Assembly: GCA_004297205.1 (NCBI GenBank)
Contig: SCUL01000001.1
Location: 29,862 to 93,861 of the forward strand
Direction: 5' to 3'
DNA from: Patescibacteria group bacterium
GTDB lineage: Bacteria > Patescibacteriota > Patescibacteriia > 2-12-FULL-57-11
Length of the DNA stretch: 64,000 nt
The translations under genes and the position numbers were made by a program. Below are positions 172 to 47,851 of the stretch, piece by piece; positions within the stretch are counted from its first letter, which is position 1; each line of letters starts with the position of its first letter. The notes under the pieces are model-generated. The model ran no database searches. It saw only the letters and a program-made list of their open reading frames with translations, and had not been told where the DNA came from.

Positions 172-1853
172 GCCGGTTTATGGCGTGCTTGCAGGAAGAC
201 GCCGAGCAGCATCACGGCGGCGGCGAGCAAGCCCATCTTGCCGAAGACGCTCCCCCACGGCAAGACGCCGGGCGAGGCCAGAACGAGCGCCGAGGCCACG
301 AGGATGGCGGCCGCCACGATCGCCAGGATGCGCAGATCGTTCTCGCGGTCGAACTCCTCCATCAGCACCTTCAGTTCGTCGAGATCGAGCCGCACCGAGA
401 AGTTCCCCTCTTCCATGCGCTTCAGAAGGGCCGAGGTACGCTCCGGGATCAACGGCAGCTTGCGGACGAACTCCAGAGCCTCCTCCCGTGTTTCCGGCAG
501 CCAGCTGCGCGGGTCAAGGCGCGCCATGGTCAACTGGTCGAACAACGGCGCCATGGACGCATCCAGGTTGATCTTCGGATCAAGCTTCTGCAGCACGGTC
601 TCGATGGTCAGGAGCGCTTTGGCGAACAGCACGAGGTCCGTCGGGAACCGCACGCCGTGGCGGCCGCCGGAGACGATGATCTTGTAGTAAGCGTGCGGCA
701 ATCCCTTGTGCGACGACGGCCGGTAGACCACGGCGTCGACGTGCTTGCGCACTTCCGCGCTGAAACCGACGACGTCGGCCTCCGGCGCAAGCGTCGACAT
801 GTCGAGCACGTGCTTCACGAAGGCCTCCATGTCGCGGCGCAGGTAGGCCTGGAAGGCGGAAACAAGCTCGTAACGCAGCGCCGAAGGCAGATAGCCCATG
901 ATGCCGAAATCGTAGAGCACGATGCCCCCGCCCGGCGCGACGAGCAGGTTGCCCGGATGCGGGTCGCCGTGAAAGAAGCCGGTGACGAAGAACTGGTGCA
1001 GGAAGGCTTCCATGACGAAGGCGGCAGTCTCCTTACGGTTGACCTTTGTGCTGCGCAGCCGCTTCAGCTGTCCGAGGCGGATGCCGGAGACCTCGTCGAG
1101 CGCGAGGAGTCCCGGCCGCGTGTAGTCCCAGTGGACGGCCGGCACGTGCATGCGCGGCTCCTCGGCGAAGTCCGCGCGGAAACGTTCGACGTGCCCGGCT
1201 TCGACGGTGAAATCCAGCTCGCGCAGCGTCCATTCGGAAAAAGTGCGGACGATGTCCACCGGCTGGTAGTTGCGCGCGGCCGGCAGGGCGCGTTCCAGCA
1301 GGCGCGCCAGGAGCGCCAGGAGATGCAAGTCACGCGTCACCTCGGCGCGGATGCCGGGCCGCTGCACTTTCAAGACGATGTGCTTGCCGTCATGGGTCAC
1401 GGCGCGGTGCACCTGCGCCATGGACGCCGAAGCGATCGGGCGGGGCGACACGGATCGGAAAAACGTCTTCACGCCGCCGCCCAGCTGTTCTTCGAGCGCG
1501 GCCAGCACGTCCGCGTACGGCACCGGCGCGGCGCGCTCCTGCAATTTGGCGAATTCCGCGGCCGCATCCTCCCCCACCACGTCCGGCCGCAGCGCCAGCA
1601 TCTGTCCGAATTTCACGAAGGTCGGCCCGAGCTGTTCGCAGGCTTTGCGGAAACGCACCTCGACCGACACGGCCGGACCGGCCTGCGCCGCACGCAGACC
1701 GCAGACCAGCCGCCGCGGCAGCGGCACCAGTCTGCACAGGTTGATGTCCTGGAGCTGGCGCTCAAAACCCGCTTCAAAAAGAACACTGACAATTTCTCGC
1801 AGGCGCTGCGCGTCGTCGATGCCGCGGCGCAGATTGTATGCCTCCTTTTTCAC
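168..1853 (-). CDS. ubiB: UbiB/ABC1 (AarF) family atypical protein kinase, C-terminal TM helices
   Basis: Contains FVKFGQMLALRPDVV, ASASMAQVHRA, VLKVQRPGI and HGDPHPGNLLV, the ABC1/UbiB kinase signature blocks. GTG start with upstream AGGAGG. Confidence 0.85.
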   Translation of the reverse strand: MKKEAYNLRRGIDDAQRLREIVSVLFEAGFERQLQDINLCRLVPLPRRLVCGLRAAQAGPAVSVEVRFRKACEQLGPTFVKFGQMLALRPDVVGEDAAAEFAKLQERAAPVPYADVLAALEEQLGGGVKTFFRSVSPRPIASASMAQVHRAVTHDGKHIVLKVQRPGIRAEVTRDLHLLALLARLLERALPAARNYQPVDIVRTFSEWTLRELDFTVEAGHVERFRADFAEEPRMHVPAVHWDYTRPGLLALDEVSGIRLGQLKRLRSTKVNRKETAAFVMEAFLHQFFVTGFFHGDPHPGNLLVAPGGGIVLYDFGIMGYLPSALRYELVSAFQAYLRRDMEAFVKHVLDMSTLAPEADVVGFSAEVRKHVDAVVYRPSSHKGLPHAYYKIIVSGGRHGVRFPTDLVLFAKALLTIETVLQKLDPKINLDASMAPLFDQLTMARLDPRSWLPETREEALEFVRKLPLIPERTSALLKRMEEGNFSVRLDLDELKVLMEEFDRENDLRILAIVAAAILVASALVLASPGVLPWGSVFGKMGLLAAAVMLLGVFLQARHKPA

Positions 1854-4249: not shown

Positions 4250-7111
<2,862 letters not shown>

Positions 7112-7122
<11 letters not shown>

Positions 7123-7699
7123 ACAGGCGGCTGGCGACGGTAGTCTGGACGCGGACGGACGCGGCCGAGGCGCCGCTGCCGGAGCGCAAGGCGAGCACGA
7201 CGGTCACCGACGGCTGCGGCACGACCGAGCCGGGCGGCGAGACGAACGGGTCGGTGATCGGATTGACGACGACCATGAACTGCTCGACGACCGCGCCTTC
7301 CGGAGTCAGCGAGGCCGTTTCCCCGTTTTCCTCGACGAGCAGGCAGGGGCTCGATCCCGTCGGACAGCCGCTCTCCGACCGGCGGAAGGAAAACGTGCCG
7401 CCGCCGGACGCCGACAGGAACAGCCGCGTGTCGGTCAACCCGAGCGGGCCGCCTTCGGCCGGATCGGCGTACCGGGCATAGTCGATGCTCCCCCGCCGGA
7501 CGCCGCGGGCCATCTGTTCGACGGCCACGCGCGCCGTCGCCGCCAGCTCCTCGCGGCCCAGCACCTTGCGCTCGGCGCGGTTGGCGATCAGGAACATGTC
7601 GGTCACGGCGACCATGGCCGTGGAAAAAATCGCCACGACCACCAGCACCTCCATCAAGGTAAAGCCGGCACGACCCTTTTGTTCCTTACCTCCAGTCAT
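7112..7699 (-). CDS. Type IV pseudopilin (prepilin-type N-terminal cleavage/methylation domain)
   Basis: MTGGKEQKGRAG|FTLMEVLVVVAIF: leader ends in Gly, mature residue F1, Glu at +5. Confidence 0.75.
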
Positions 7700-8309
7700 A
7701 TAATTCGCCTTGCATTTCCAAACGATGGCCGCGGCCGGACACGGTCCAGGTGACGAGGACGCGCACGTCGGTGCCTACTTCGACCTGGCCGCCCGGACAG
7801 GCCGTGCCGTCGACCGAGGCGATCGTCGCCGCGTCGCCCTCCACCATGCAGATCGGCCGCAGCGTCAGCAGGCGGCGGAACGGCGACTCCACGGCGCCGG
7901 CCGGCGGCGCGCCGTCGTACTGGCGCAGCGAGCCGTCGGGGTCCTCGTAGACCACGGCGTCGGCGTCGCTGATCCCGGCGGCCGTAAAGTCGATCCGCCA
8001 ATCTTTTTCCGGCATGAAAAACGGCACGCCGGTGCGGTCGCCGCCGGGACCGACCAGCGCCGTGTTCCAGGGAACGGCGGCCAGCCAGTTGCCGTCGCGG
8101 ATGACGCGGGACGCCTCCATGGCTTCGCGGGCCAGACCGGTGGCCACGACGCGCGTCTGGCTTTCGTTGGAGGCGTTGAGCGAACTCGAGACGAGCGACA
8201 GCGTCCCGGCAATGCCGGACACGATGATGCCGAGCGCGATGATCATCTCCAGCATGCCTTGGCCGCGCGGAGGGAGGGGGTCGCGTGTCGCGTGTCGGAA
8301 ACGCGTCAT
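7686..8309 (-). CDS. Type IV pseudopilin, PilV-like (non-canonical +1 residue)
   Basis: ...PPRG|QGMLEMIIALGIIVSG has Glu at +5 relative to a Gly cleavage site, followed by a hydrophobic helix. Confidence 0.6.
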   Translation of the reverse strand: MTRFRHATRDPLPPRGQGMLEMIIALGIIVSGIAGTLSLVSSSLNASNESQTRVVATGLAREAMEASRVIRDGNWLAAVPWNTALVGPGGDRTGVPFFMPEKDWRIDFTAAGISDADAVVYEDPDGSLRQYDGAPPAGAVESPFRRLLTLRPICMVEGDAATIASVDGTACPGGQVEVGTDVRVLVTWTVSGRGHRLEMQGELYDWR

Positions 8310-8911
8310 AGCGGCTGGTCTTCGATCCGCCGGCTGATGCGGTTGTAGCGCACCTCGCGCCGGGTGTTATTCAGCAGCTGTTCGAGCGTCACGGAAAACT
8401 CCTGCGCAGCCTGCGCGCCGTTGATCCAGACGTCCGGCCGCGGCGGCACGAACACCATGTCTCCCCCGCCGGCCGAGACGCGCACCCCGCCGGAGGCCGA
8501 AAACTTCTCCGTCAACAGCACTTCGCCCGCGTTCATGATGCGGTTGGCGTCGAGATCGGCGAACAACATCGCGTCCAACTCGCCCGTACCGACGTGGATG
8601 CCGTAGCCGCCGCGCGGGACGGTGTCGGACGGTGTTCCGCCGCCCGGACAGGTGCGCTCCGCCGTGCAGACCGGACCCGTCGGATCCCCGCTCAGGCACA
8701 GACAAACGGTGACGCCGGACGAGGCGCGGGATTCGGCGTCACGGATGAGCGAGGCGAAGGTCTGGGCGCCGAGGCGCAGCTCGTCGCTGCGCTCGCCGAC
8801 GCGGAAGTTGACCATGACGAGCGCCGACATCACGGCGAAGATGCTCATGGAGACAAGCAGCTCGATGAGGGTGAACCCTTCGACGTGGTTCAGGGCAGGC
8901 CCGCGCTTCAT
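8306..8911 (-). CDS. Type IV pseudopilin
   Basis: MKRGPALNHVEG|FTLIELLVSMSIFAVM is a classic prepilin motif. ATGA overlap with the pilD stop. Confidence 0.75.
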   Translation of the reverse strand: MKRGPALNHVEGFTLIELLVSMSIFAVMSALVMVNFRVGERSDELRLGAQTFASLIRDAESRASSGVTVCLCLSGDPTGPVCTAERTCPGGGTPSDTVPRGGYGIHVGTGELDAMLFADLDANRIMNAGEVLLTEKFSASGGVRVSAGGGDMVFVPPRPDVWINGAQAAQEFSVTLEQLLNNTRREVRYNRISRRIEDQPL

Positions 8912-9699
8912 AGCACGCCGTACAAATACCAATCGAGCATGGCCCGGCCCCAGAACAGCACGACGACGGTGGCCGCGCTCAGGAAGGTCCCGAACGGAAT
9001 CTGGCTGCCGACGGTCTTCCGCTTCGATGCCAGCAGGACCGCGCCGACCGCGCCGCCGGAGAGGTAGGCAATGAAGAGCGCCACCAGCACCAACGGCCAG
9101 CCCAGGAGCACGCCCATCAGCGCGCCGAGCCGGATGTCGCCGCCGCCGATCCACTTCCCGCCGGAAATGACGTACTGCAGCAGGAAGAAACCGCCGCCCA
9201 CCGCCGCGCCGATCAGCAGCATCGGCAACGGCACGCCGAGCGCCAGATTCCAAAGCAGGAACACGGCGATCGCCGGCAACGTGACCTGGTCCAGGATATA
9301 GCCGAACCATAGGTCGTACAGGAAGATCTGCACGAGGACCACGATGGCCGCCCAGTCGCGCAACAACGGCAGCACCCAGTCCGGCGCCAGGAACGCCTCG
9401 ACGCCGCCGAATGCCGCGGGACCCAGCCGGATCACGGCGGCAAGCGCAAACAGCGCCGCCGTCGCCAGCTCCAACAACGGATAGCTCGCGCCGATCACGC
9501 CGCGGCAGTATCTGCACTTTCCGTCGAGCACAAGGTACGACAAGACCGGGACCAGGTCCCAGACGGCGAGCGGGTGGCGGCACTTCGGGCAGTGGGAACG
9601 TCCTGTCGCCCACCGCTCCCCCTTCGCCTGCCGCGAAATCAAGGCCGTAAGGACGCTGCCGAAGACCAGTCCGAGCAGCGCCGCAAGCGCGACGATCAT
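8908..9699 (-). CDS. pilD: Prepilin peptidase (A24 family)
   Basis: N-terminal CPKCRHPL...CRYC zinc-binding tetracysteine, polytopic membrane protein with GGGDI/KL motifs. Confidence 0.85.
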   Translation of the reverse strand: MIVALAALLGLVFGSVLTALISRQAKGERWATGRSHCPKCRHPLAVWDLVPVLSYLVLDGKCRYCRGVIGASYPLLELATAALFALAAVIRLGPAAFGGVEAFLAPDWVLPLLRDWAAIVVLVQIFLYDLWFGYILDQVTLPAIAVFLLWNLALGVPLPMLLIGAAVGGGFFLLQYVISGGKWIGGGDIRLGALMGVLLGWPLVLVALFIAYLSGGAVGAVLLASKRKTVGSQIPFGTFLSAATVVVLFWGRAMLDWYLYGVL

Positions 9700-9747
9700 G
9701 CCGACAGTATACCAAAAGCGCCCCGGTTGTGCCGGGACGCTCGCGTT

Positions 9748-10245
9748 TCAGTCGCAGCTGATGCCGTCCGGCGCGGACGTGCACTGGATGATCCCGTCGC
9801 CGCTGGTGTCCGCGAACTCGGCCGCCGGGCGTTCCAGGCGGAAGGTGATGCGGTAGGCGGCGCAGGGCGCGGCGCAGGTGTAACGGTAGACCCGGCCGGT
9901 CGCGGCGTCGTTCTGCGGGTCGCGGGGTACCTGGCCCATGTAGACCTGCTCCCCCGCCGCGGCCGCGGCGCGGAAGCCGGTGCCGTCGAGGACGCGGGAA
10001 GCGGCTTCGCCGAGCACCAGGTCCTGGGCCGGATAGGCGCTGGCGCCGGCGTAATGCAGCTCCAGCGCGTTGCCGATCTGCTTGAGGTCGGCGAGCCGCT
10101 TGGCATCGCGCGACTTGAGCCGGGCGTCGTTGAGCGCCGCGACGCCGATCGTCGCCAGCAGGCCGATGATGGCGATGACGACGAGCAGCTCGATCAGGGT
10201 GAACCCTCCGACGTGGCTCAGGACGGGCCCTTTCGTGTGTCGCAT
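9748..10245 (-). CDS. Type IVa pilin (major pilin candidate 2)
   Basis: MRHTKGPVLSHVGG|FTLIELLVVIAIIGLLATI... with a C-terminal Cys pair (C..C...DGISCD). Confidence 0.8.
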   Translation of the reverse strand: MRHTKGPVLSHVGGFTLIELLVVIAIIGLLATIGVAALNDARLKSRDAKRLADLKQIGNALELHYAGASAYPAQDLVLGEAASRVLDGTGFRAAAAAGEQVYMGQVPRDPQNDAATGRVYRYTCAAPCAAYRITFRLERPAAEFADTSGDGIIQCTSAPDGISCD

Positions 10246-10290
10246 AGGTAACGCGAAAGCCACCCCGTCTCGGCGGGGTGGCTGCGCGGC

Positions 10291-10758
10291 TTACGTGCAG
10301 GCGATGCCGTCCTGCGTGGCGGTGCAGGTGATGTTCCCGTCGCCGCTCGTGTCGGTGTACTGGCCGGTCGGGCCTTCCAGGCTGAAGCCGAGCGTGTAGC
10401 TCGTCACCGAATTGCGCGTGTAGGTGTAATTGATCGTCGGCGACTGCGGGTCCCTCGGCATGAGACCCATGTAGACCGGTTCGGTCGCCGCGGCGCCGAA
10501 GCCGTCGCCGTCGAGCCGCGTCAGCCCTGCGGCAGTACCGATCACGGAACCCGCTGCCGCGTCCGGATACTGCTGGTTGTCCGAGTAGTAGAGTTCGAGC
10601 GCGGTCTGGATCTGTTTGACGTCCGAGACGCGCTTGGCGTCGCGCGACTTCTCACGGGCGCTGTTGAGGGCGACGACGGCGAGGGTCGAGAGCAAACCGA
10701 TGATGGCGATGACCACCAGGAGCTCGATCAGGGTGAAGCCTTTGTGCGACTGTTTCAT
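10291..10758 (-). CDS. Type IVa pilin (major pilin candidate 1)
   Basis: MKQSHKG|FTLIELLVVIAIIGLLSTL... with a C-terminal Cys pair (NITCTATQDGIACT). ATG at 10758. The upstream part of the 357-aa ORF is spurious. Confidence 0.8.
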   Translation of the reverse strand: MKQSHKGFTLIELLVVIAIIGLLSTLAVVALNSAREKSRDAKRVSDVKQIQTALELYYSDNQQYPDAAAGSVIGTAAGLTRLDGDGFGAAATEPVYMGLMPRDPQSPTINYTYTRNSVTSYTLGFSLEGPTGQYTDTSGDGNITCTATQDGIACT

Positions 10759-10820
10759 AATGCCTCCTTCGAAAATGACGTGTGGATAAATGTTCGAACC
10801 TATTATAGCACTTTCCCGTC

Positions 10821-12026
10821 CTAGAAGCTGTTGGCGATGTTGTACATGGGCAGAATCACGGCCGCGACCATGGTGCCGACGGCGACGCCCATGATGACCA
10901 TGATCAGCGGCTCGATCAGCGTCACCAGGTTGCCGACCATGTTGTCGATCTCGCGGTTGTAGAAGGCGGCCAAACGGCGCAGCACTTCCCTGATCTTCCC
11001 GGTGTCTTCTCCCACGGCGAGCATCTGCACCAGCATCACCGGCACCGCCTTGTTCCCGCTCATGACCGTGACGATGGAGTTGCCGTCCTCGACTTCCTTC
11101 TGGGTGCGCAACAGGATGTCGCGGTAGGTGGCGTTGCCGACCACGTTCGAGGCGATGCCGAGCGCCGTCACTTCGTCCACACCGCCGGCCAGGAGCGTGT
11201 CCATGCTGCGGGCGAAACGCACCAGCGCGATGCGCTTGAACAACCCACCGAAGATCGGCATGCGGATCTTCATGGCATCCCACACGGCGCGGCCGAGCGG
11301 CTGGCGGATGGCGAACTGCAGGCCGACGATGGCGCCGACCACGAGGATGATCACCAACCACCACCAGTGCTGGAAGAACGACGAGACGCCGATCAGGATG
11401 CGCGTCGAGAGCGGCAGTTGGGCGCCGGTTTCGGCCAGCACGTCGGTCAGTTTGGGCAGCACCCAGGTCACCATGACGAAGCCGACGATGCTCAGGCCCG
11501 TCACGATGAAGGCCGGATACATCATGGCGCCGCGGATTTTCGCGGTCAGGTCGTAGTCCTTCTCCTCCTGGTCGGCCAGATATTCCAGCACGTCGGCGAG
11601 ACGGCCGCTGGTTTCGCCGGAGCGGATCATGTTGACCATGAAGTCCGAGAAGGCATGGTGCTGCGCCATGGCGTCGGACAGCTTGGCGCCGGCTTCCACT
11701 TCGTCGGCCACGCTCTCCAGAACCTTCTGCAGCTGGCTGTTGGTGGTCTGGTTGATCAGCGCGCGCAGCGACTGCACCAGCGGCACGTTGGCAGAGACGA
11801 GCACGGAAAGCTGCCGCGCGAAGATGACGATGTCGCGCCGGCTGATGCGCTTCAGCCGCGCCAGCAAGGATTCCACCGTGGCCACGCGGATGTGCTCGGT
11901 GATCTGGACGTCCAAAAGACCCCGGTCCGTCAGAGTCGAGGCGGCGAATTCAGGAGTGTCCGCGTTGACGACGCCGCGGACCTCCTTGCCGCTGCGGTTG
12001 CGTGCGACGTAGTCGTACAGCGGCAT
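10821..12026 (-). CDS. pilC: Type IV pilus inner-membrane platform protein (GspF/PilC family)
   Basis: Two T2SS-F domains and about 400 aa. Conserved position downstream of pilB. Confidence 0.9.
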   Translation of the reverse strand: MPLYDYVARNRSGKEVRGVVNADTPEFAASTLTDRGLLDVQITEHIRVATVESLLARLKRISRRDIVIFARQLSVLVSANVPLVQSLRALINQTTNSQLQKVLESVADEVEAGAKLSDAMAQHHAFSDFMVNMIRSGETSGRLADVLEYLADQEEKDYDLTAKIRGAMMYPAFIVTGLSIVGFVMVTWVLPKLTDVLAETGAQLPLSTRILIGVSSFFQHWWWLVIILVVGAIVGLQFAIRQPLGRAVWDAMKIRMPIFGGLFKRIALVRFARSMDTLLAGGVDEVTALGIASNVVGNATYRDILLRTQKEVEDGNSIVTVMSGNKAVPVMLVQMLAVGEDTGKIREVLRRLAAFYNREIDNMVGNLVTLIEPLIMVIMGVAVGTMVAAVILPMYNIANSF

Positions 12027-12031
12027 GCTGC

Positions 12032-12421
12032 TCAGGAGACGTGCGCCAGGATTTTGCGCACTTTGGCGACGGTGTCGGCGGGAACGAAATGGGCCTTGAT
12101 GAGGTAATCCACGGCACCGCCCTTGAGGCCGCGCTGGACGTCCTCCTTCTGGCCGAGGTTGGTCAGGATGACGACCGGAATGTGCTTGGTCGCGGCGTCC
12201 TTCTTGAGTTCGTCGAGCACTTCGAAGCCGTCCATCTTCGGCATCAGGACGTCCAGGAGGATGATGTCCGGCAGCTCCTTGCGCGCCACCTTGAGTCCGG
12301 CCAGGCCGTCGCCGGCCGAGAGCACGTCAAAGCCCTCCAGGGAGAACTTGGTGGTGTAGATGCCGGCCAGGAAAGCGTCGTCTTCGACGATCAGCACCCG
12401 AAATTTTTTCTTTGCGGCCAT
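12032..12421 (-). CDS. Stand-alone response-regulator receiver domain (CheY-like)
   Basis: RVLIVEDD...ILLDVLMPKMDGFEVL...VVILTNLG..K: receiver fold with the phospho-acceptor Asp in LLDV. No output domain. Confidence 0.85.
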   Translation of the reverse strand: MAAKKKFRVLIVEDDAFLAGIYTTKFSLEGFDVLSAGDGLAGLKVARKELPDIILLDVLMPKMDGFEVLDELKKDAATKHIPVVILTNLGQKEDVQRGLKGGAVDYLIKAHFVPADTVAKVRKILAHVS

Positions 12422-12430
12422 AGAAACGGG

Positions 12431-14191
12431 TTATTCGGTGTCCTCTTCCTCGCTGATGCGCAACACTTCTTCAACGGTGGTGATGCCGGCCAAGGCCTTC
12501 AGGATACCATCCTGCTTGAGCGAAATCATCCCTTGTCGGCGCGCTTCGGCGCGGATCTCGTCGGGCTTGGCGCCGCTGCTGATGATGCGCTGCAAGTCGC
12601 GGCTCACCGGGAGAATCTCGGCAATCGAGACGCGGCCCTGGTACCCCGAGTCGCCGCAGGTCTTGCAGCCCTTCCCGGCATAGAACACCAGCTGCCCCTC
12701 GATGCTGACGCCTTCCGGCAGCAAGCTGGCGGGCACGTTTTTCAGGTCCTTGCGCAGCACCTCGACGACCTCCTGCGGGATGTCGGTCGGGGCTTTGCAG
12801 TCCTTGCAAATGCGGCGTGCCAAACGCTGGGCGATGCCGACGTTGATGGTCGCGGCGATCAGGAACGGCTCCACGCCCAGGTCGACAAGCCGCGGAATGA
12901 TGCCGAAAACGTCGTTGGTGTGGATGGTGGAGAAGATCAGGTGGCCGGTCAGCGCGGCATGGACGGCCAGCTCGGCCGTTTCCTTGTCGCGGATTTCGCC
13001 GACCATGATGACGTTGGGGTCCTGACGGAGCAGGGCGCGCAGACCGGAGGCGAAGGTGTAACCGATCTCCGGGCGGATCTGCGACTGGTTAACGCCCTTG
13101 ATGTAGTACTCGACCGGGTCTTCCAAGGTCACGATGTTCTGCCCCTCGGCGTTCATCATGTTCAGCGTCGTGTAGAGCGTCGTGGATTTTCCGGAACCCG
13201 TGGGACCGGACACGAGCACGAGTCCGTGCGGCTGGGAAATTTCCTTCTTGATGATGGCGATGTTTTCCGGACGGTAGCCGAGCTGCTCCAGCGTCGGCAC
13301 GCCGACGGACGTGTCCAAGATACGCATCACGACCTTCTCGTTGTCGACGACCGGGATGGTCGACACGCGGAAGTCGATGACTTTGCCGCCCAGCGTCTGG
13401 GTGATGCGGCCGTCCTGCGGGATGCGCGTTTCGTCCAGCTTCAGGTTGGCCATCACTTTGACGCGGGAGACGACGGCGCCATGGATATAGGCGGGCAGGG
13501 TCAGCGAAGTGCGCAGCACGCCGTCGACGCGGTAGCGGACGCGCGTCTGCTTCCCGAACGGTTCGACGTGGATGTCGGAGGCGCCCTGTTCCACGGCGGC
13601 GCGCATGATGACGGACACCATGCGGGACACCGGTGCGCCCTTGATGACCTCTTCCATCGTGCCTTCGGCGGCTTCGGCGGCCTTGCCCGGGCCCTTTTCG
13701 AACTTGCCTTTGGCGATCTCCAGGGCCTTTTCGACTTCCTGTCCGAATTCCTCATAGCGGCGCAACGCCGCGGCCAGACTCGATTCCGACGTCACGGCGA
13801 GACGCGCCGTCATCCCCTTCCCTTCCGCGTAGAAGGTCACGGCCTGAACATGCGCGTAGTCTTCCGGATCGGCAATCGCCACGGACAGCTGGCTGCCGTC
13901 GACGGCATAAGCCACGGCGCGGTGCGCTTCGGCGATTTCGCGCGGCACCAGTTCAATCACTTCGCGCGGGATGTCCACGTCGCGCAGGTCGACGTAGGGC
14001 AGGCCGAGCACGGCGGCGCGGGCGCGGGCCAGCGCTTCTTCCGGAATGCCGGAGTCCTTGAGGATGCGCAGCTCGTCCGCGGGTTTTTTGGCGATATCGG
14101 CGCGCACCGCCGCGATTTGCGCGTCGGTGGCGTCTCCGGCGCGCTTGAGCGCGTCCAGAAGCGGCGAGGGTTGTGCGGGTGCAGCGGGCAT
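12431..14191 (-). CDS. pilB: Type IV pilus assembly ATPase (GspE/PilB family)
   Basis: Walker A VSGPTGSGKSTT and a tetracysteine (CKDC...CKTC). About 586 aa with GspII_E N-domain. Confidence 0.92.
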   Translation of the reverse strand: MPAAPAQPSPLLDALKRAGDATDAQIAAVRADIAKKPADELRILKDSGIPEEALARARAAVLGLPYVDLRDVDIPREVIELVPREIAEAHRAVAYAVDGSQLSVAIADPEDYAHVQAVTFYAEGKGMTARLAVTSESSLAAALRRYEEFGQEVEKALEIAKGKFEKGPGKAAEAAEGTMEEVIKGAPVSRMVSVIMRAAVEQGASDIHVEPFGKQTRVRYRVDGVLRTSLTLPAYIHGAVVSRVKVMANLKLDETRIPQDGRITQTLGGKVIDFRVSTIPVVDNEKVVMRILDTSVGVPTLEQLGYRPENIAIIKKEISQPHGLVLVSGPTGSGKSTTLYTTLNMMNAEGQNIVTLEDPVEYYIKGVNQSQIRPEIGYTFASGLRALLRQDPNVIMVGEIRDKETAELAVHAALTGHLIFSTIHTNDVFGIIPRLVDLGVEPFLIAATINVGIAQRLARRICKDCKAPTDIPQEVVEVLRKDLKNVPASLLPEGVSIEGQLVFYAGKGCKTCGDSGYQGRVSIAEILPVSRDLQRIISSGAKPDEIRAEARRQGMISLKQDGILKALAGITTVEEVLRISEEEDTE

Positions 14192-14556
14192 CAGGGAGCC
14201 GGTTCGGGTTCAGGAACGGCCGGCGCGGGCACTTCCGGCTCGGGCGGCGGCGCCGGCTCCTCCGCCGTCGCTCCCTCGGCGAGCCGCTCGGAGGCGGCGC
14301 CGGTCGCGTCGCGGAAGGGGTTGGCACGGCCGCGCACCGGCGGCGGCTGGACGGCGGCGGGCGCGCGCAAGGCGCTGAAGCGGGCATCGCGCAGCACGGC
14401 GGCGTCGAGCGTTTCCGGACGGCGGATCGGTGCGGCGTCCGGCGCCGCGCTATCGCGCAGGAAGAACCACCACGTGCCGAAGACGGCCACGGTGGCCACG
14501 GCGACGAGCAGCAGGATCAGCACCGGCCGGGAAAGTTGTGCGGAAGGTGCGGCCAT
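14191..14556 (-). CDS. Small membrane-anchored Pro-rich protein (PilP-like position)
   Basis: TM helix LILLLVAVATVAVFGTWWFFL followed by a Pro/Glu/Ala-rich tail. ATGA-coupled to pilB and pilO. Confidence 0.45.
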   Translation of the reverse strand: MAAPSAQLSRPVLILLLVAVATVAVFGTWWFFLRDSAAPDAAPIRRPETLDAAVLRDARFSALRAPAAVQPPPVRGRANPFRDATGAASERLAEGATAEEPAPPPEPEVPAPAVPEPEPAP

Positions 14557-14557
14557 A

Positions 14558-15151
14558 TCAACGGGCCAAAAGATGGTACGTCCGCAGGTTCAGGCTGTAG
14601 GCGCCGGATTGCTGGAAGGCCACGGCCGTCACGTCGAACAGCCGGAGACTCCCCTCCAGGTTGCGCACGAAGGCCTTGAGTTTGGGATAGTCGCCGCCGG
14701 CCAGTGAAACGGCCACGTCGGTGCCGCCCACGGACGGCAGACCGGCAATGCTGTCTTTGCGCGGATTGGTGTCGACGGCGAGCATCTGGAGACCGGCCAG
14801 GCGCGACAGCTCCTCCAATGCGGTGATCACGGCCGGGACATCCGCTTCCGACGGCAGAAACCGCTCCAGGCGTTCGGTGTCGGTGCGCGAGAGCGCCGCG
14901 AATTGCCGCTGCAACGCTTCGAGTTCGGTGAGCTTGGCCTCGCGCTCGCCGAGCGCGGCCCGCTTGGCATCCACGTCGTATTTTCCGCCGTCACGGAAGG
15001 CGGCAAACACCGGGTGGACCAGACCGAAGTAGCCGGAGGCGAGGATCGCCAGGGCGAGCACCACGGACACGCCCGGCCAGTTGCGGCCGACGGCGTCAAG
15101 CGCCGAGGGACGGCGCGGCGCGGCTTTGAGGGGTCTGATGGGAGCGGCCAT
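14558..15151 (-). CDS. PilO-like pilus assembly protein
   Basis: Single N-terminal TM followed by a coiled-coil (EREAKLTELEALQRQ) and a periplasmic domain. Position after pilN. Confidence 0.6.
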   Translation of the reverse strand: MAAPIRPLKAAPRRPSALDAVGRNWPGVSVVLALAILASGYFGLVHPVFAAFRDGGKYDVDAKRAALGEREAKLTELEALQRQFAALSRTDTERLERFLPSEADVPAVITALEELSRLAGLQMLAVDTNPRKDSIAGLPSVGGTDVAVSLAGGDYPKLKAFVRNLEGSLRLFDVTAVAFQQSGAYSLNLRTYHLLAR

Positions 15152-15166
15152 ATCCTTAAGGACGGG

Positions 15167-16222
15167 TCAGCGCGGAGTGGACGACGCCGTGGCGGCCGGA
15201 GTGAGCAGGGTCGGCGCCAGGGTCAACGTCATGGTGAAGCGCACCCCGCGCACTTCTCCGTTCGGGGCGACGTCGGCGGTCATGCCGCCGGCCTCGACGC
15301 CGCTGATCATGCCGGTCGAGGTGCGGAAGACGACGATCTGCTCGGCGGCCGCGGCGAAGGATTCCGCCAACCCGTCGAGGGTGACCGTGCCCACGGATTC
15401 GCTGCGCAGCTGGGTGAAGGTGACGGTCGGAATGGTGTTGCGTTCCAGATAATCAAAGAAGCGCGTCCACTGGATATGGCCGTCGAGGAGCTTGCGCACG
15501 GCACCAAGCTGCCGGCCGGCACGGCGCGTGCTGACGAGGTTGGCGTCGGCTTCGGCGATGCGGGCGTCGGTCTGGGCGATGACCGCTTCGACGTTTTTGA
15601 TCTCGGCGGTGCGCTGACCGGCCATGGCCCGGGCCACGCCGTAGCCTGCGGCCACGGCGATCACCGACACGATACCGACGGCCACGACGATGCGCAGACC
15701 GCCGCGGCTGCTCTTGACCGGCTTGCCGCCCTCTTCCGGAATCAGGGAGACGCGCAGCACGTGGTCGCTGCCGGCAGGCACGGAAAATTGCGGTCCGGTT
15801 TTGGTTTTGGCCGGCGGGGGCGGCGCAGCCGGCGGTTTGGCGGGCGGCGTCGGTTTCGGGGGGGGCGGCGGCGGGGGCGGCGCAGCCGGCGGCAACGGTT
15901 GCGGCCGGGGCGGTTGGGAAACGGCCGGCGGAGCGCTCATGGCCAGCGGCTTCGGCCCGGGCCCGGGCGTGGCGATCGGCGCGGGCTTGGTCGGCGGCTT
16001 GGCGATCAGCGGCTTCGGCTTGGCGCGGAACAAACGACCAAAGAACCCCGGTTGTTTGACCGGCGTTGCTGCGGACGGAGGCGGGGCGGCGGGCGCGTTC
16101 CCCGGGACGTACAGGGCGAATCCGGGTTTGTCCTTGGTGCGCTTTTTGCGTTCCTCCTCTTCTTTTTTCTTGAACTCCTCAGGAAGGAGCGAAATGCCGT
16201 CAGCCATCGGTGCGACGGTCAA
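15167..16222 (-). CDS. PilN-like fimbrial assembly protein with long poly-Pro linker
   Basis: Cytoplasmic N-terminus, a long Pro-rich tract (PPPPPPPKPTPPAKPPAAPPPP), TM helix IVVAVGIVSVIAVAAGYGV and a periplasmic domain. Follows pilM. Confidence 0.6.
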   Translation of the reverse strand: MTVAPMADGISLLPEEFKKKEEEERKKRTKDKPGFALYVPGNAPAAPPPSAATPVKQPGFFGRLFRAKPKPLIAKPPTKPAPIATPGPGPKPLAMSAPPAVSQPPRPQPLPPAAPPPPPPPPKPTPPAKPPAAPPPPAKTKTGPQFSVPAGSDHVLRVSLIPEEGGKPVKSSRGGLRIVVAVGIVSVIAVAAGYGVARAMAGQRTAEIKNVEAVIAQTDARIAEADANLVSTRRAGRQLGAVRKLLDGHIQWTRFFDYLERNTIPTVTFTQLRSESVGTVTLDGLAESFAAAAEQIVVFRTSTGMISGVEAGGMTADVAPNGEVRGVRFTMTLTLAPTLLTPAATASSTPR

Positions 16223-16248: not shown

Positions 16249-17310
16249 CTATTCAATATCACGCATCGCCAGGCCCACAGCAACGCTGAAGCGAGCGCCG
16301 ATCTGGTCCAGCACCGGCCGCAAATCAAGCGGGTAGACAACGCGGGCCCAGGGATCGCCGACGTAGGTCTTGATGCCGATGGTCGCGCCGATGGCATCGG
16401 CCAGCCGCGGAAACAACGCCGCGCCGCCGGTCAGGATGATCTTCTCGATCTGCCGCGGCGTTTCGTTCTGGCCGGCGTAGAGGTTCGAGGAGTAACGGAT
16501 TTCGTTGAGCAGCATGGTCAGCGCGCTGTCGAACATCTTGGGCAGGCCGACGTCCGGCATGATCTCGGCCACGGCCTGGGCGTCGATCTTCATCTGCTCG
16601 GCCTGGGAGAGCGGCACGCGCATCGTCTCCGACATGGCGCGGGAGAGCGCCAGGCCGCCGAGGTTGAGCGAGCGGGACAGGAACGGGATGCCGTTCTGCA
16701 CCACGACGATGTTGGTGCGCAACGCGCCCATGTCGATGATCATGACGTTGGCGCGGTCGCGGCCGATCAGCGAGCGGATCAGCGCGAAGGCTTCCGTCTC
16801 CAGCGACAGCAACTGCAGCCCGGCCAGCTTGAAGACGTCGATATATTTCTTGACCAGCGATTTCGAGGCGCCGGTCAGCAGCATGCGCGAGTAGTTGGCC
16901 TTCTTGGCCTCGCCACCGGCGTCCGGAATCGGCGTCGTCTCCAGGATCATCTCCTCGAGCGGCATCGGAATGAGTTTTTTGGCCTGCAGCTCGACCGCGG
17001 CGGACAGCGCTTTGCCCGTGGCCGCCGGCACGGTCACGACCGACGAAAAGACGGACGAGACCGGCAGGCCGGAGACGACTTTGACGGTGCTGGTTTTGGC
17101 GCGCTTGCAGATTTCCCGGAGCAACGCCGCGGCCGCGTCGGGCTTGTCGAGCAGGCTCTCCCCCACTTTGGCCACCGGATGCTCGGCAAAACCGTACGTC
17201 AAAAGCTTGGCGCGTCCTTTTTCGTTCATCAGTTCGACGACTTTGATGCCGCCGGCGCCGATGTCGATGCCGAGGTAGCTTTGCTTGGCGGGTTTTCCGA
17301 AGAGGGCCAT
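16249..17310 (-). CDS. pilM: Type IV pilus assembly protein PilM (actin-like ATPase fold)
   Basis: YLGIDIGAGGIKVVEL... is an actin/FtsA-like N-terminus typical of PilM. Confidence 0.85.
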   Translation of the reverse strand: MALFGKPAKQSYLGIDIGAGGIKVVELMNEKGRAKLLTYGFAEHPVAKVGESLLDKPDAAAALLREICKRAKTSTVKVVSGLPVSSVFSSVVTVPAATGKALSAAVELQAKKLIPMPLEEMILETTPIPDAGGEAKKANYSRMLLTGASKSLVKKYIDVFKLAGLQLLSLETEAFALIRSLIGRDRANVMIIDMGALRTNIVVVQNGIPFLSRSLNLGGLALSRAMSETMRVPLSQAEQMKIDAQAVAEIMPDVGLPKMFDSALTMLLNEIRYSSNLYAGQNETPRQIEKIILTGGAALFPRLADAIGATIGIKTYVGDPWARVVYPLDLRPVLDQIGARFSVAVGLAMRDIE

Positions 17311-17339
17311 GCGTGGAAGATTCGCCCCGAGTATATCAC

Positions 17340-19361
17340 CTATCGCGGCGCGACGTCTGTGAATTTCGGCAGCGACGACACCACGTCGGCCATGCCCGGT
17401 GGCGGATTGGCCACGGCCCGACCGTCATACGTGATGCGTTCCGCAGGCTCCCCGCCCGCGGACGCGGCGCGTTCGAAGTTGAACTGGCGCGCGATCATCA
17501 AGCCGCCGACCTTCAAATGCTGGGTGCTGCCCGCGCCGGTGTAGACCGTGCCTTCCACGTAGTACGTGCCGACGATCTGGCTGACGCTCGCTTCCGACAG
17601 GCTGACCACGGCCGGCACAAGGACGGCCCCGCCCGCCGCGCGCTTGTCCACCACGATCACGCCGAGGGACGCCAGGTTGCGCAGCGTCCCGCCGGGCGCG
17701 CCCGCAGCGTAGCTCAGGTCGGCGTTGATGCTGAGTTTGCCTTCCACGAGGATGAGTCCGGCGCCGCTGCGCGTTCCGGCGGCGTTGCGGAACGCGCGCA
17801 GCGCGTTCACGTCAAGACCGTCCGGGAAGTAATAAACGCGGCCGTCGAGCACGTCCGGCACCTCGTTCCATTCGTCGGGCTGCAGCGTGGTGACGCGGCC
17901 GTAGGCGCCGCGCTTGATCCCGGCGATGTCGAGGCGGCCGAGCGGGCTGGCGTAGTTGGAAGATGCCGTCGGCAGCAGGAAGTCCTCGGGGTTCGGCACC
18001 GGGTCGCAGCCGGCCGTGCCGGAACCAGCCGCACCGCTCTGCACGACGAAGTTGACCGGCGCTCCTCCGCCGGCGGACACCAGGCAGAAGGTGGCGTTGG
18101 CCTGACCGGCGGGCGGCGGGTTCTCGGCGCGAATGCCGCGGCGCGAGTAAATATCCTCGAACAGCGCCTGCAGCCATGGCGTGTAGACCGGCTCGCAAAA
18201 CGTGGGGTTGCCGTCGCCGTCGACCGGACACTGGTTGGGATCGGCCGTCGGCATGCAGCGCAGCGCGTTGTCCACCTGGCAGATGCCCGGGCACCACGGC
18301 GCGCAGGAGGAGTCGAGGCAGTCGATGTCGCCGTCGACGTCGTTGTCGTTCACGTCGGAACAGGCCACCTGCTCCAGGCCGGCGCCGAAGACGAAGGCTT
18401 CTTCGTTTGCACAGACGCCGACGCCCAGACAATCCGTGTCCGCGCAGTCCACGCCGGAGGTCGGCTGGTCGTCGTAGTTGCCGAAGCCGTTGTCGACGTC
18501 GTTGTCCACGCCGTCGTCGCAGACGAGTTCCGTCGAGGGGCAGCCGTAAGCATCCTGATGCCAGCAGGTGTCGTTGTCGGCATCCAGCAGGTTGTCGGCG
18601 CAGTCGGTCCGGCCGTCGCCGTCGTTGTCGTTGGTGTCCGTGCACTCGGCCGGGGACGATTCGGGGCCGCAGGTGACGCCGCCCGGACCGGCCACGCCCA
18701 GGCAGTCGGTGTCCGCGCAGTCGACGCGGCCGTCCAGGTCGTTGTCGAGGCCGTCGGCGCAGAGCGTCTCGTTGGTCACGAGCGTGGCCGTGGAAAAATC
18801 GATCCAGCCGACGCCGGTGCCGTCGTCGTTGCCGTTCCAGGCGAACCCGGTGACCGTGCCGGTCCCCAGATTCATGGTCACGAAGTACTCGCCGCAACCG
18901 ACCGGTCCGCTGTTGTCGCAGTTCAGGGACACCCAACCGCGGCCCTTGAGCGACGGGATGTAGGCCCAGCCATGCACCTCATAATCGGCCGCCACCCAGG
19001 CGTAGACGCTGCCTCCGGGTTGCGTCGGCGCCGAGGCGTACGGGTTGCAGGTCTGACCGAAGCACATCCACCCCACGTTCTTGGACCAGGCCCAGCCCTT
19101 GATGCTGTAGCCGGTGGCGCCGCCGTACTGCCCGCTCACGGTATCCGCGATGTCCACGCCGTACTCCGGCGGACAGCCGCCGCCGGTGACGCAGTTCACG
19201 GAAAACCAGCCGACGCGCTCGCTCCACAACCACCCGCGCAGCCGGTCGCCGTCCGAGGCTCCCGCAGTCGACGCAAAAACCGCCGTGCCGAGCAGCACGA
19301 GGGTGCACGCCAACAATGCGGTGCGCCATGTCCTCCGCATGGCATCAGTATACCACGTCAA
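17340..19361 (-). CDS. Secreted 673-aa repeat protein: N-terminal aromatic GW...N.GW..F repeats plus Asp/Cys-rich calcium-binding-like repeats
   Basis: Signal peptide [28 protein letters not shown]. Four GWxWSxxVGWxxxNC-type repeats and four D-x-D-N-D-x-D-G-x-x-D-C-A-D-x-D-C units (MopE/TSP3-like). First gene of the pilus operon. Confidence 0.7.
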
Positions 19362-19768
19362 CGCGCGAGATGGGCGTCGATGGCTTTGTTGACCTCGGCG
19401 TCCGCCTCCGTGTTCTTCTCGCGGCGGACGTGGTGGAAGGTCACTTTCTTAAAACCGGTTTTGACGTTATGGATTTTGAGAAAAATCTGGGCCAGGCCGG
19501 GGTTCTTGACCTTGTACTCCCCGTTCATCTGCTTCACGACGAGCTCCGAGTCCATGCGCATCTCGACCTCCTCCGCGCCCAAATCTTTGCAGCGCTCGAG
19601 TGCCGAGAGCACGGCCGAGTATTCGGCGATGTTGTTGGTCTGCCTGCCGAGGTAGCGGCCGTACGCTTCGATCGTCTCTTTCTCGTCCTTGATGACCACG
19701 CCCAAAGCGGCCGGCCCGGGATTGCCCCGCGCGCCGCCGTCGGTGTAGGTGATGAGTTTCTTATGGGA
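19358..19768 (-). CDS. rnhA: Ribonuclease HI
   Basis: [14 protein letters not shown]...[13 protein letters not shown]...VKGH-like RNase H catalytic motifs (DEDD). Confidence 0.85.
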
Positions 19769-45500: not shown

Positions 45501-47014
45501 TTCACCCCGGCGGCAACGTATCCGGAAGCAAACGGACTTGAACCGTCCGTGTACGTCATGAGCGGCGCGCCGCGCGTTCCGCCCACCGGGTAGATGTAGG
45601 CTTGCAACACGGGGTTTCCGCTCGGATTGTCGACGGCTTCGAGCTCCATCGTGTACCACACGCCGTTCGTCAGGGCGTAGCTCGCCGTGGTCAACGTCGT
45701 ATTGCCCGGTGCGCCGGCCGCGTGTTTCAACAAGTACCACGAGCTGGCATCGGCATGATGCAGCAGGTACCCGCCCCCGTTGCCCGTCGCCGCGGTTTTT
45801 CTCACCCACAACTGATGGTTATCTCCCGTTGATTCCAAAAAATCCACTTTCACCCGTTCGTTGACCCAGGCCGACTGGCCGTTTGCGATTTGATTCGTAT
45901 CGAACGTCCCAACGCCGCTCGTCTCACTCACCACTTTACCGCCGTTTCCCGCGGCGACCGCCCACGTTCCTGCGCCGACCGCTTGCCAGCTGTTTTGGCC
46001 GGCAATGGCCGCGGTGTTCAGCGCGTCAAACGTGTCCGAAAAAATCAAGTCCAACGGCTTTGAATTCGGATTGTTCGACGAAAGCCCTGTCCCGTCCGAT
46101 GTCACCGCCTTGACGTTGAACTCGTATCGGACGCCGTTCGTCAATCCCGTGACGGTCGCCGTTGCGGAAGCGCTCGTCCCATCGTCGAAGGTCGTCCATG
46201 TTGTTGCACCGTATATGCGGTATTGGATGACGTAATCTGTTACTGGATTGGCCGTCGAAGGCGCCGTCCAGTTCAGCAACATCGACCCGTCAAGACTGCT
46301 TGCCGTGAGGTCGGTAACGACCGCATCCGTGCCGGTCACGGAGACATCATCAAAGGTGCTCGCCGTCGTTGATGACTCGAGAAAAATCGGCTTATTCGTA
46401 ATGCTCGTGTCAACGGTCATGGAACACTGCGAGACAAGCCCGGCGCCCGTGTCCATCAACACATCGAAACCCGTTGCCGTCACGAGGAGTTTGTACGTCG
46501 CACCGCTGGTGAGCGTTCCACAACTTAGATTTGAATCTACTAACAATCCGTTGCTCCAGTGCAACGCATAAATCGGACCGGATGTTCCTGAGAGATCGAT
46601 AATATATGCCTTGGTGCCCGCTGCTTGAAAATTATAATCACCGTATCCAAGCAACTGAGCGGACCCCGGCGTCATCTTTGCGACGATGCTCAAATTCGTT
46701 CTTTGGAACGTACTCACGGAATAAACCGCCGTGTTCCCCCATGTTCCGGAAAGACTGTTTGAGACGGATAAGCTGCCGTTCTGCGAAATATTCGCGCCGG
46801 GATCGACGACCGTCCACTTGGCGGTGTCGATCGTCGAACCCGTGAACGTATCCGTCAAAAGAGTTGCTGCAAAAGTGAACGGTGCATGATGAAGGAAAGC
46901 GACGACGCTACCGATGACAAACAATGCGCCGAATACAAATACGCGTAACTTCGAGGACCCCCCCCCCGCGGTTTTTGCCGTTTTTTGATCATAATTCCGT
47001 TGCAACGACCGCAA
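42536..47014 (-). CDS. Giant secreted surface protein (1492 aa) with multiple FN3-like modules and an SGNH/GDSL hydrolase domain
   Basis: TTG-initiated ORF. Signal peptide ...LRVFVFGALFVIGSVVAFLHHAPFTFA. IGDSITEGYYG (GDSL block I). Several about 90-aa modules with ...YEFNVKAVT... / ...YYFTVSAYD... FN3 signatures. Confidence 0.8.
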   Translation of the reverse strand: MRSLQRNYDQKTAKTAGGGSSKLRVFVFGALFVIGSVVAFLHHAPFTFAATLLTDTFTGSTIDTAKWTVVDPGANISQNGSLSVSNSLSGTWGNTAVYSVSTFQRTNLSIVAKMTPGSAQLLGYGDYNFQAAGTKAYIIDLSGTSGPIYALHWSNGLLVDSNLSCGTLTSGATYKLLVTATGFDVLMDTGAGLVSQCSMTVDTSITNKPIFLESSTTASTFDDVSVTGTDAVVTDLTASSLDGSMLLNWTAPSTANPVTDYVIQYRIYGATTWTTFDDGTSASATATVTGLTNGVRYEFNVKAVTSDGTGLSSNNPNSKPLDLIFSDTFDALNTAAIAGQNSWQAVGAGTWAVAAGNGGKVVSETSGVGTFDTNQIANGQSAWVNERVKVDFLESTGDNHQLWVRKTAATGNGGGYLLHHADASSWYLLKHAAGAPGNTTLTTASYALTNGVWYTMELEAVDNPSGNPVLQAYIYPVGGTRGAPLMTYTDGSSPFASGYVAAGVNVVAGSFDNFYAYGTSSDAISITSPSRSVALSPQTATVAITDEGGTFYIPYIQTSTTLAVAATVGSTVLPAGGGVKFILNEGLGTEQSLYDMSSPFTASFTGLAKGTYTLDAHVVNSSQVVQTGAGDQDTATSIGIGDIITAIGDSITEGYYGTDYGATAVTSWIDAPAGSLSADNRNFAQFGPTSLSYKKSWMSELNDELTTYYGYPVFVMNEGWGSYKATDYITLMATGQWSTRQAALVPNKWLIHLGVNDGIATVTPTNFQSQMQTIMNTLASTYGAASSSMWLAKPSYSNVYTYTENYLPNIVTLRSNNALGGGPDFWTYYGNHIALYGGDPVHPTAAGHTQMARLWALSIMSPKSFSASQVTSTVQLSWNNLSTVDATVAGYKVKYGTSPGVYTTTVDVGNVLSKNISGLTAQTYYFTVSAYDNDATTVNETANAAEISLAFDLAGPTFSSVVATPNASGAEVVWTTNELGSSMVNYGLTTAYGSTSTEADTSPRVTSHSVSLTGLLPCTTYHYRPRSNDSYANLGTGSDATFTTTGCTGSAAVTASTSADMTAAAGGTMNLLSGATGITLTVPAAFSGSDANFQINQLDSASVLATASAPSGYSAIGSYMYSLQALSGVSTAITSFNNPITLRIAYASADVSGIDESSLRIYRWNGTAWSVLTGCSVNEQTNTVTCTTTQFSTFGLFGQATVAVTRGGGDVSAPQPPMTGFSISVNGGAPSTTSTAVTLTLIGGSDTATMAISNSADFTNIPLETYSRTKSWNLCTGLSVCAAGNHSVYVRFYTANGGASGTYTDTILLTVTGTVSASPAPATSAPLPSNAPTTALLDNLQRLNVAVHALVKTPDNPAVYDVGTDGKRHAFPNENVYFTWYPDFNGIQIVSASDLATIPLGANVTSKPGVSLVKFLTDPKVYAVASGGILRWITSELIAATIYGPDWNQMVDDVNDVLYGNYAFGSDVISPADYDPATAAASVQYPGDGRNF

Positions 47015-47091
47015 TGATTAGAGTATAACAAAATTCCAATCTCCATAAAAGGTTGTCCTTTGGGCATTTTTCGCGTATCTTTCCGTCGTAC

Positions 47092-47165
47092 TCCGGGGTC
47101 GTCTAATGGTAGGACATGGGCCTTTGAAGCCCAGTATCATGGTTCGAATCCATGTCCCGGAACCA
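47092..47165 (+). tRNA. tRNA-Gln (anticodon UUG)
   Basis: Cloverleaf: acceptor tccgggg/tcccgga, D-arm gtct..ggac, anticodon arm tgggc-cuUUGaa-gccca, T-arm catgg-ttcgaat-ccatg, discriminator A, encoded CCA. Confidence 0.9.
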
Positions 47166-47197
47166 AAAGAGCGCCACAGCTGTGGCGCTCTTTTCGT
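47166..47197 (+). terminator. Intrinsic terminator after tRNA-Gln
   Basis: AGAGCGCCACA-GC-TGTGGCGCTCT followed by TTTCGTTTG. Confidence 0.65.
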
Positions 47198-47279
47198 TTG
47201 AGAAAAAGAAGAACTTGCCACTCGAAAGCATTTGCCTCGTACCGCCGAGGCCTGTAGAGACATCAGTCGATGGGTCAAG

Positions 47280-47830: not shown

Positions 47831-47851
47831 CATAAAAAACACCCGCCGCAG

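Follow-up and report, generated by a model that had tools for sequence, protein, structure and literature searches.

A secreted Patescibacteria protein encoded directly before pilM combines a predicted Trp-rich barrel, acidic cysteine repeats and a beta-solenoid, and is a candidate type IV pilus accessory protein

Within a 64,000-nucleotide stretch of contig SCUL01000001.1 from a Patescibacteria group bacterium (positions 29,862 to 93,861; hereafter, the window), a minus-strand gene immediately precedes the pilM, pilN-like and pilO genes of a type IV pilus (T4P) cluster. Its product, referred to below as the GW-solenoid protein, is a secreted protein of three modules, a Gly-Trp (GW) barrel, acidic Cys repeats and a solenoid. 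The GW barrel family is real and is absent from the Pfam-A, NCBIfam and PDB sequence libraries searched, while the C-terminal module, as judged from structure prediction, shares its fold with known pilus-tip subunits. Our preferred interpretation, which remains tentative, is that the GW-solenoid protein is a Sec-exported, non-pilin T4P accessory, a tip plug or adhesin analogous to PilY1 and ComZ. Coordinates of all features are collected in Table 1.

Domain architecture of the GW-solenoid protein

The four aromatic modules described in an earlier note on this DNA are present: a GW..GW regular expression matched the segment four times, whereas 20,000 shuffles of it gave a mean of 0.04 matches and at most 2. 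A hidden Markov model (HMM) of module 2 only, built from 49 homologues, recovered module 1 (E 1.4e-4) and module 4 (E 4e-3), and did not recover module 3, which is divergent. Across the family, the modules form a conserved unit of ca. 150 amino acids (aa), with the consensus G[YWF]AWS..IGWIsfN / GYAWS.NIGWI.F / GWAR..S....GWDGWISL / GYAWG...GWIDFS. The unit has no Pfam-A or NCBIfam match in the GW-solenoid protein or in eight other family members, and the Pfam models of choline-binding, Listeria GW and LysM modules give no match at E <= 1 to the GW regions of the same proteins; the earlier opinion that the repeat is unlike these modules is therefore upheld. A Pfam scan also revealed no match to a carbohydrate-binding or PilY1/PilC family, a kinship against which the earlier note had staked its proposal. 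A profile of the GW unit found no meaningful match among PDB sequences. In the AlphaFold2 model of the GW domain, calculated with a 49-sequence alignment (predicted local distance difference test (pLDDT) score 88, predicted template modelling (pTM) score 0.87), the four GW hairpins are predicted to form one Trp-rich 8-stranded beta-barrel. A closed ring of four-stranded blades, which would make it a beta-propeller, is not seen, and the beta-propeller or beta-helix fold envisaged earlier for the aromatic repeat is not supported by the model.

The C-terminal part of the protein (aa ~386-673) is conserved across the family and ends with DGRAxxNPPPG-x7-LP. In the full-length model, aa 395-460 mostly have a pLDDT below 50, and the confidently modelled solenoid occupies aa ~460-650 (pLDDT 74-96 in most 10-residue blocks). 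The predicted fold is a triangular right-handed beta-solenoid of the IBP-1 type. The best PDB matches found by Foldseek were ice-binding proteins and ComZ; these matches vanish when the N-terminal domain alone is searched, and therefore belong to the C-terminal domain. A profile of the C-terminal domain had no meaningful match among PDB sequences, and the Pfam model DUF3494 / IBP-1 gave no match at E <= 1 with the GW-solenoid protein or with 20 homologous C-terminal domains. Five of these 20 domains, but not the protein itself, matched Pfam DUF7305 (PF23981) weakly, with a best E of 0.0032; in a scan of ten full-length homologues the best score listed, 16.3 bits, did not reach the gathering cutoff of 27 bits. 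The domain had been described as Gly/Ala-rich, and it is moderately enriched in these residues (12.3/13.7%, versus 7.7/10.5% in neighbouring genes), but is predicted to be a folded beta-solenoid.

Between the two domains lie Asp-Cys units at aa 201-231, 240-274 (a variant), 281-317 and 334-357, each a ca. 30-residue acidic stretch with four Cys, as described by the NCBIfam model NF033662; drawn more narrowly, the units span aa 201-220, 240-266, 281-311 and 334-353. This model matches in 3 stretches, at 66 bits versus a cutoff of 41 (E 1.7e-18). The resemblance to TSP3/MopE repeats that had been pointed out thus holds, in that there are four units of a calcium-type acidic Cys repeat, but the repeat is one already catalogued. 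Other proteins matched through it carry Pfam MopE (PF11617) or bacterial TSP3 (PF18884), the GW-solenoid protein has no match at E <= 1 to Pfam MopE (PF11617) or TSP3 (PF02412, PF18884), and the Asp-Cys region faintly matches the Cys-rich region of teneurin in the PDB. Homologues differ in how many copies they have, and the shortest members of the family have none. Taking the DxDxDG-like motif of the units to be a Ca2+-binding signature, we consider that the repeats are probably a Ca2+-binding spacer or stalk.

The last ca. 12 residues of the protein are conserved, with L664 and P665 invariant in the family, yet the monomer model gives them low confidence, as would fit a docking peptide. A similar C-terminal motif is found in GW proteins of very different architecture, for instance in proteins ending with NWKEVAP. 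LPx[WFYILV] occurs within the last 14 aa in 76 of 149 top GW representatives, versus 0 of 100 controls and 0.7% of random windows. The shared motif may be a docking or sorting signal. Variants of the tail, as seen in P0124, P0130, P0139 and P0283, read LPx[W/F]xE-hydrophobic-xP or ..FWQF, and no membrane helix follows them.

Conservation of the locus across genomes

To describe the locus in other genomes, we used a C-terminal-domain scan (8-sequence alignment; one genome per species), which returned 80 loci titled Patescibacteria, Uhrbacteria, Komeilibacteria, Parcubacteria and, for some, "uncultured Gammaproteobacteria". In 66 of the 74 informative loci, pilM is located no more than ca. 400 nucleotides (nt) downstream on the same strand, with gaps mostly of 10-40 nt, and is followed by pilN/O/B, a response regulator gene and pilC. 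The link to pilus genes put forward in the earlier note is thus strongly conserved. The same arrangement was observed for homologues P0016, P0017 and P0009, and the adjacency to pilM persists to ca. 30% identity. Between loci, the GW-solenoid protein is 34% identical, compared to 27-28% for PilN/PilO and 50-56% for PilM and PilB. Many of the L007-L085 contigs have the Gammaproteobacteria title, and two others are titled Vicinamibacterales and Acutalibacteraceae. Because the Gammaproteobacteria-titled loci share the Patescibacteria gene order, that title is read as a placeholder; all three titles are probably placeholders or the result of mis-binning.

The GW barrel and the solenoid are present in one protein at 60 loci and in adjacent genes at 12, and none of the 72 loci having a complete upstream region contains a solenoid without a GW domain. 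At the split loci, a GW gene of ca. 540 aa is located immediately upstream of a solenoid gene of ca. 1450 aa, which is rich in acidic double-disulfide repeats (at least 7). Nearly all exceptions to pilM adjacency belong to a short GW-solenoid subfamily of ca. 460-470 aa without acidic repeats; at one such locus, L048, ca. 4 kb of large unannotated genes and then a signal peptidase I gene precede pilM. Lower-GC lineages have, directly before pilM, a gene for a GW protein of ca. 395 aa with a different C-terminal part (of Ig/PKD type, a label assigned by eye) and with a tail that reads LPEWREIKP or LPEFKEITPK. Across lineages, therefore, GW proteins occupy the position ahead of pilM, and what differs is the cargo domain.

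The GW family in Patescibacteria

A GW profile compared with 1.84 billion cluster representatives produced 5655 matches at E <= 1e-3 and 1964 at E <= 1e-10, so that the family, counted in clusters at 50% identity, has at least 5655 members. All matches with a named organism come from Patescibacteria groups. We therefore conclude that the GW repeat is very common in Patescibacteria, and not rare. A single-sequence search with the N-terminal part came back empty, missing even a homologue of 85% identity, which we ascribe to the word-index limit of that search and not to absence; the exhaustive profile search is the decisive one. No description of the GW family was found in the literature, papers on the pili of the candidate phyla radiation (CPR) included.

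GW domains co-occur with PKD, Ig, Gly-rich, Lcl_C and PG_binding domains; P0378, P0291 and ca. 14 others are proteins of ca. 300 aa in which GW repeats are combined with the peptidoglycan-binding domain PF01471. GW proteins are generally not encoded beside pilus genes (none of three loci looked up and 3 of 80 metagenome loci). The co-occurrence of the repeat with T4P loci that the earlier note had raised does not extend to GW proteins at large.

Four independent Patescibacteria contigs carry, inside the ribosomal S10 operon and on the same strand, a gene for a secreted GW-barrel protein of ca. 280-317 aa ending with ..KTKFWQF. It is located between rplB (L2) and rpsS (S19) in L087-L089, and directly upstream of rpsS in L090, where no rplB was detected upstream. 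This location points to constitutive expression at a very high level, and the product might be a major surface protein. On another contig (L086, 7001-7945), a gene for a 314-aa GW protein adjoins phage-tail-fibre-like genes (GP38, Gp10_C, Gly_rich_2), a neighbourhood that hints at a cell-surface structure as a possible ligand of the GW barrel.

The gene, its start and its neighbours

The longest open reading frame (ORF) codes for the 673-aa secreted protein that had been reported, but the true start is probably Met8, since homologues P0001-P0005 begin with MRRTWRT, the sequence at that position; the product would then have 666 aa. Full-length homologues (n=17, 35-85% identity) come from Patescibacteria (CPR) metagenome-assembled genomes. 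An opposite-strand ORF of 780 aa (17313..19655, plus strand) was rejected as a by-product of high GC content, all homology evidence being in favor of the minus-strand gene. The GC content is 63-71% over most of the window; it falls to 0.51 (versus ca. 0.65 elsewhere) at 46001-48000, beside a tRNA-Gln gene (47092-47165), where an island or insertion is possible.

A-x-A sites right before the first GW module, such as the AGA that ends the Sec-type leader, recur among homologues, and we infer from the sequence that the protein is exported via Sec. A pilin or pseudopilin was rejected on the grounds of this leader and of the absence of an N_methyl (PF07963) match in the Pfam scan, in which four neighbouring ORFs do match PF07963. 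A lipoprotein was also rejected, Cys19 being part of the leader's hydrophobic core and conserved only in close homologues.

On the minus strand, the gene order is lepA, recJ, rnhA, the GW-solenoid gene, pilM, pilN-like, pilO, a 121-aa ORF, pilB, a response regulator gene and pilC, followed by two pilin genes, a prepilin peptidase gene and four minor-pilin-like genes. The latter are small and have no bulky tip domain, and none of the pilins of the window carries a solenoid. The GW-solenoid gene had been called the first gene of the pilus operon. It does lie directly upstream of pilM-pilN-pilO-pilB-pilC, but with the rnhA stop codon only 17 nt upstream of the ATG at 19340, the first place is plausible rather than proven. 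No terminator-like site was found between the GW-solenoid gene and pilM. The extended -10-like box that precedes the ATG makes a leaderless mRNA possible, and a second TGnTATACT box is located at ~17330-17338 on the minus strand, 19 nt upstream of the pilM ATG. A scan for sigma-70 consensus promoters found no site, and did not pick up either of the two boxes. The 121-aa ORF between pilO and pilB (14191-14556, minus strand) codes for one membrane helix and a Pro/Glu/Ala-rich tail and has no Pfam match; in the homologous loci L001 and L004 this position holds an ORF of 132-444 aa.

Table 1. Features of the GW-solenoid gene and its product, of the neighbouring pilus genes, and of related loci (positions refer to the window, or to the contig named)
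Feature	Position	Strand	Remark
Longest ORF, 673 aa, TTG start	17340..19361	-	stop codon 17340-17342
Probable true gene, ATG at 19340 (Met8), 666 aa	17340..19340	-	from homologue starts
TGGTATACT box, TGnTATACT, extended -10-like	19345-19353	-	6 nt upstream of the GW-solenoid ATG
Sec-type signal peptide, aa 8-35	19257..19340	-	hydrophobic core, then AGA before SD; read from sequence
GW domain, aa 36-196	18774..19256	-	four Trp-rich beta-hairpin modules; predicted one 8-stranded meander beta-barrel
GW module 1, aa 43-56	19194..19235	-	regular expression; found by module-2 HMM
GW module 2, aa 89-101	19059..19097	-	regular expression; source of HMM
GW module 3, divergent, aa 131-147	18921..18971	-	GWAR..S....GWDGWISL conserved across family
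GW module 4, aa 172-189	18795..18848	-	regular expression; found by module-2 HMM
Four acidic double-disulfide repeats, aa 198-357	18291..18770	-	four Cys each; NCBIfam NF033662
Cys-rich linker, aa 358-389	18195..18290	-	four more Cys; low model confidence
C-terminal domain, aa 390-655	17397..18194	-	predicted ice-binding-protein/ComZ-like beta-solenoid
Conserved extreme C-terminal tail, aa 656-673	17343..17396	-	
pilM	16249..17310	-	PF11104, E 1.8e-39; 29 nt downstream of GW-solenoid stop
pilN-like	15167-16222	-	PilN 18.9 bits, below cutoff 22.8
pilO	14558-15151	-	PilO 24.7 bits vs cutoff 22
pilB, response regulator, pilC, two pilins, prepilin peptidase, four minor-pilin-like genes	6334..14191	-	minor-pilin-like genes at 6334-7122, 7112-7699, 7686-8309 and ~8306-8900
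Split GW/solenoid pair	L026 980-2515 and 2446-6849		also L053, L055, L059, L062, L067, L070-L073, L077, L082
Short-subfamily loci	L048 5443-12194; L051 5401-12558		unannotated 900-1000-aa proteins follow; clpB divergently upstream
~395-aa pilM-adjacent GW genes	L127 1741-2934; L156 1137-2321		ORFs read
~395-aa pilM-adjacent GW gene	L165 GW match 789-1328		pilM from 1933; tblastn only
S10-operon GW genes	L087 7001-7954; L088 7001-7843; L089 3001-3858; L090 3001-3723		

Proposed role and alternatives

In the interpretation that we tentatively prefer, the GW-solenoid protein would be made together with PilM/N/O/B/C, and cleavage of its signal peptide at about the AGA-SD junction would leave a mature protein of four parts. 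The solenoid and the tail would do the docking, the four acidic double-disulfide repeats would serve as a rigid spacer, and the Trp-rich GW barrel would be presented as a head that binds a ligand or a surface. Recruitment to the pilus would most likely be onto a tip complex formed by the cluster's four small minor pilins, where the protein would serve as plug or adhesin and take the job of PilY1 or ComZ. Ca2+ binding, pilus location and adhesion are all properties that we infer for the protein. In favor of this interpretation are the conserved position before pilM, the fused or split pairing of barrel and solenoid, the same solenoid in the tip pilins ComZ and PilX, the lack of a bulky tip domain in the small minor pilins of the window, the Sec-type leader, as in PilY1, and the conserved residues of the tail. 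Three observations weigh against it. The gene is grouped with pilMNO, which code for the alignment complex, and not with the genes of minor pilins, as the PilY1 and ComZ genes are; thousands of proteins contain the GW domain, most of them encoded away from pilus genes; and lepA-recJ-rnhA are also syntenic upstream, so that the conserved gene order is in part due to shared ancestry.

The position at the head of a pilM-N-O set, with gaps of 10-40 nt, would also suit an extracytoplasmic component of the pilus machine at the level of the envelope. Such a component would be anchored to the cell wall or S-layer and would form or guide the pilus exit in a cell lacking an outer-membrane secretin, as a stand-in for PilP, PilQ or TsaP. 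In diderm bacteria the pilM-N-O gene set ends with PilP and PilQ. No Pfam match to the secretin (PilQ/GspD) C-domain was found in the GW-solenoid protein or the other cluster ORFs scanned, some GW proteins carry the peptidoglycan-binding domain, and the divergence of the GW-solenoid protein resembles that of PilN/PilO. We nevertheless consider a machine part somewhat unlikely: a domain for oligomerisation or ring formation was not detected, a solenoid and a small ligand-binding barrel are what one typically finds in adhesins, and both the number of stalk repeats and the type of C-terminal domain vary by lineage, which is unusual for machinery. The protein might also be a general surface adhesin or surface-layer protein that is only co-transcribed with the pilus genes and never touches the pilus. 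Such a role would agree with the GW domain being a widespread extracellular module that is joined to many partner domains, and with the paralogues found in unrelated contexts, such as the S10 operon or phage-tail-like genes. It is unlikely in view of the persistence of pilM adjacency in distant homologues, of the fused or split GW-solenoid pair keeping its position before pilM, and of a GW protein of different architecture holding the same position elsewhere, all of which exceeds passive co-location.

The wide distribution of the tail motif among GW proteins of otherwise different architecture, and its absence from controls, could also be accounted for if GW proteins were cargo, with the pilus machine working as a type II secretion-like piston and the tail as the recognition signal. 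T4P systems that secrete tip-bound proteins, e.g., TcpF and CofJ, are known. However, the tail is no more than a putative signal, many GW proteins lack it, the separate GW gene of the split locus L026 ends differently, and in a single-membrane cell the Sec leader alone may suffice; we regard export as cargo as improbable. Hardly more probable is a broader scheme, in which the GW barrel together with the tail (LPx[W/F]xE-hydrophobic-xP) is the mark of a class of proteins, specific to Patescibacteria, that are either loaded onto the T4P machine or exported by it. The pilM-adjacent member would then be the core, priming one, and the paralogues, numbering hundreds to thousands, with PKD, Ig, PG-binding or solenoid domains would be exchangeable host-attachment adhesins, displayed at the tip or secreted by the pilus. 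If this is true, it would constitute a new sorting or display system in the CPR.

Patescibacteria account for a large share of bacterial diversity, and those that have been cultivated spend their lives on the surface of host cells. In Saccharibacteria, type IV pili are essential (PMC11665869). The present analysis offers a conserved candidate attachment protein, encoded next to the pilus machine, for Patescibacteria, and the GW barrel family, with its at least 5655 clusters at 50% identity, deserves a family model of its own.

Comparison with known systems

The ingredients of the GW-solenoid protein are known: a barrel, Ca-type Cys repeats, an ice-binding-like solenoid and the concept of a pilus accessory adhesin. 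Choline-binding and Listeria GW proteins resemble it in having aromatic Gly-Trp hairpin motifs in secreted, wall-associated proteins; however, choline-binding modules form a superhelix and the Listeria GW domain is an SH3-like module, whereas the GW domain described here is predicted to be a closed barrel. The 8-stranded ligand-binding barrels of hemophilin, HpuA/TbpB, fHbp and avidins are 5-15% identical to it, with no sequence relation, and the GW barrel differs from them in being built from four recognisable sequence repeats and in being found in Patescibacteria. The acidic repeat itself shows no difference from NF033662, which is related to MopE, bacterial TSP3 and teneurin Cys-rich motifs. 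With DUF3494/IBP-1 proteins the solenoid shares the fold but not a Pfam match, and the context here is pili, not ice binding.

PilY1 carries a Sec-type leader and not a prepilin leader. The GW-solenoid protein is similar to PilY1/PilC, which in Proteobacteria is the tip adhesin of type IVa pili, in being a large non-pilin that has an ordinary signal peptide, belongs to a pilus cluster and is proposed to be a plug or adhesin at a minor-pilin tip. The two differ in that PilY1 has a C-terminal beta-propeller, with no sequence or fold relation to the solenoid, and the GW-solenoid gene precedes pilM and is not inside a minor-pilin operon. The Pfam model Neisseria_PilC, which describes the PilY1 beta-propeller domain, has no match in the GW-solenoid protein.

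The solenoid of ComZ from Thermus thermophilus was described as closest to the ice-binding protein FfIBP, and its proposed place is the pilus tip (PMC6561018). In cyanobacteria, the PilX pilins have this solenoid too, and it is these pilins that are proposed to replace the PilY1 plug (bioRxiv 10.64898/2026.02.12.705559). The GW-solenoid protein shares with these an ice-binding-type triangular beta-solenoid, which in ComZ and PilX is the bulky tip domain. There, however, the solenoid is inserted in a pilin fold, while the GW-solenoid protein has neither a pilin module nor a prepilin leader, is only ca. 14% identical, and shows no match at the sequence level. Compared to the libraries and literature searched, what is new is the combination of modules, the delivery of a solenoid without a pilin, the position of the gene, and the GW family with its tail. 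If the GW-solenoid protein is indeed a tip plug or adhesin, it would represent a third way of placing an ice-binding-like solenoid at the tip of a pilus, in trans and without a pilin fold.

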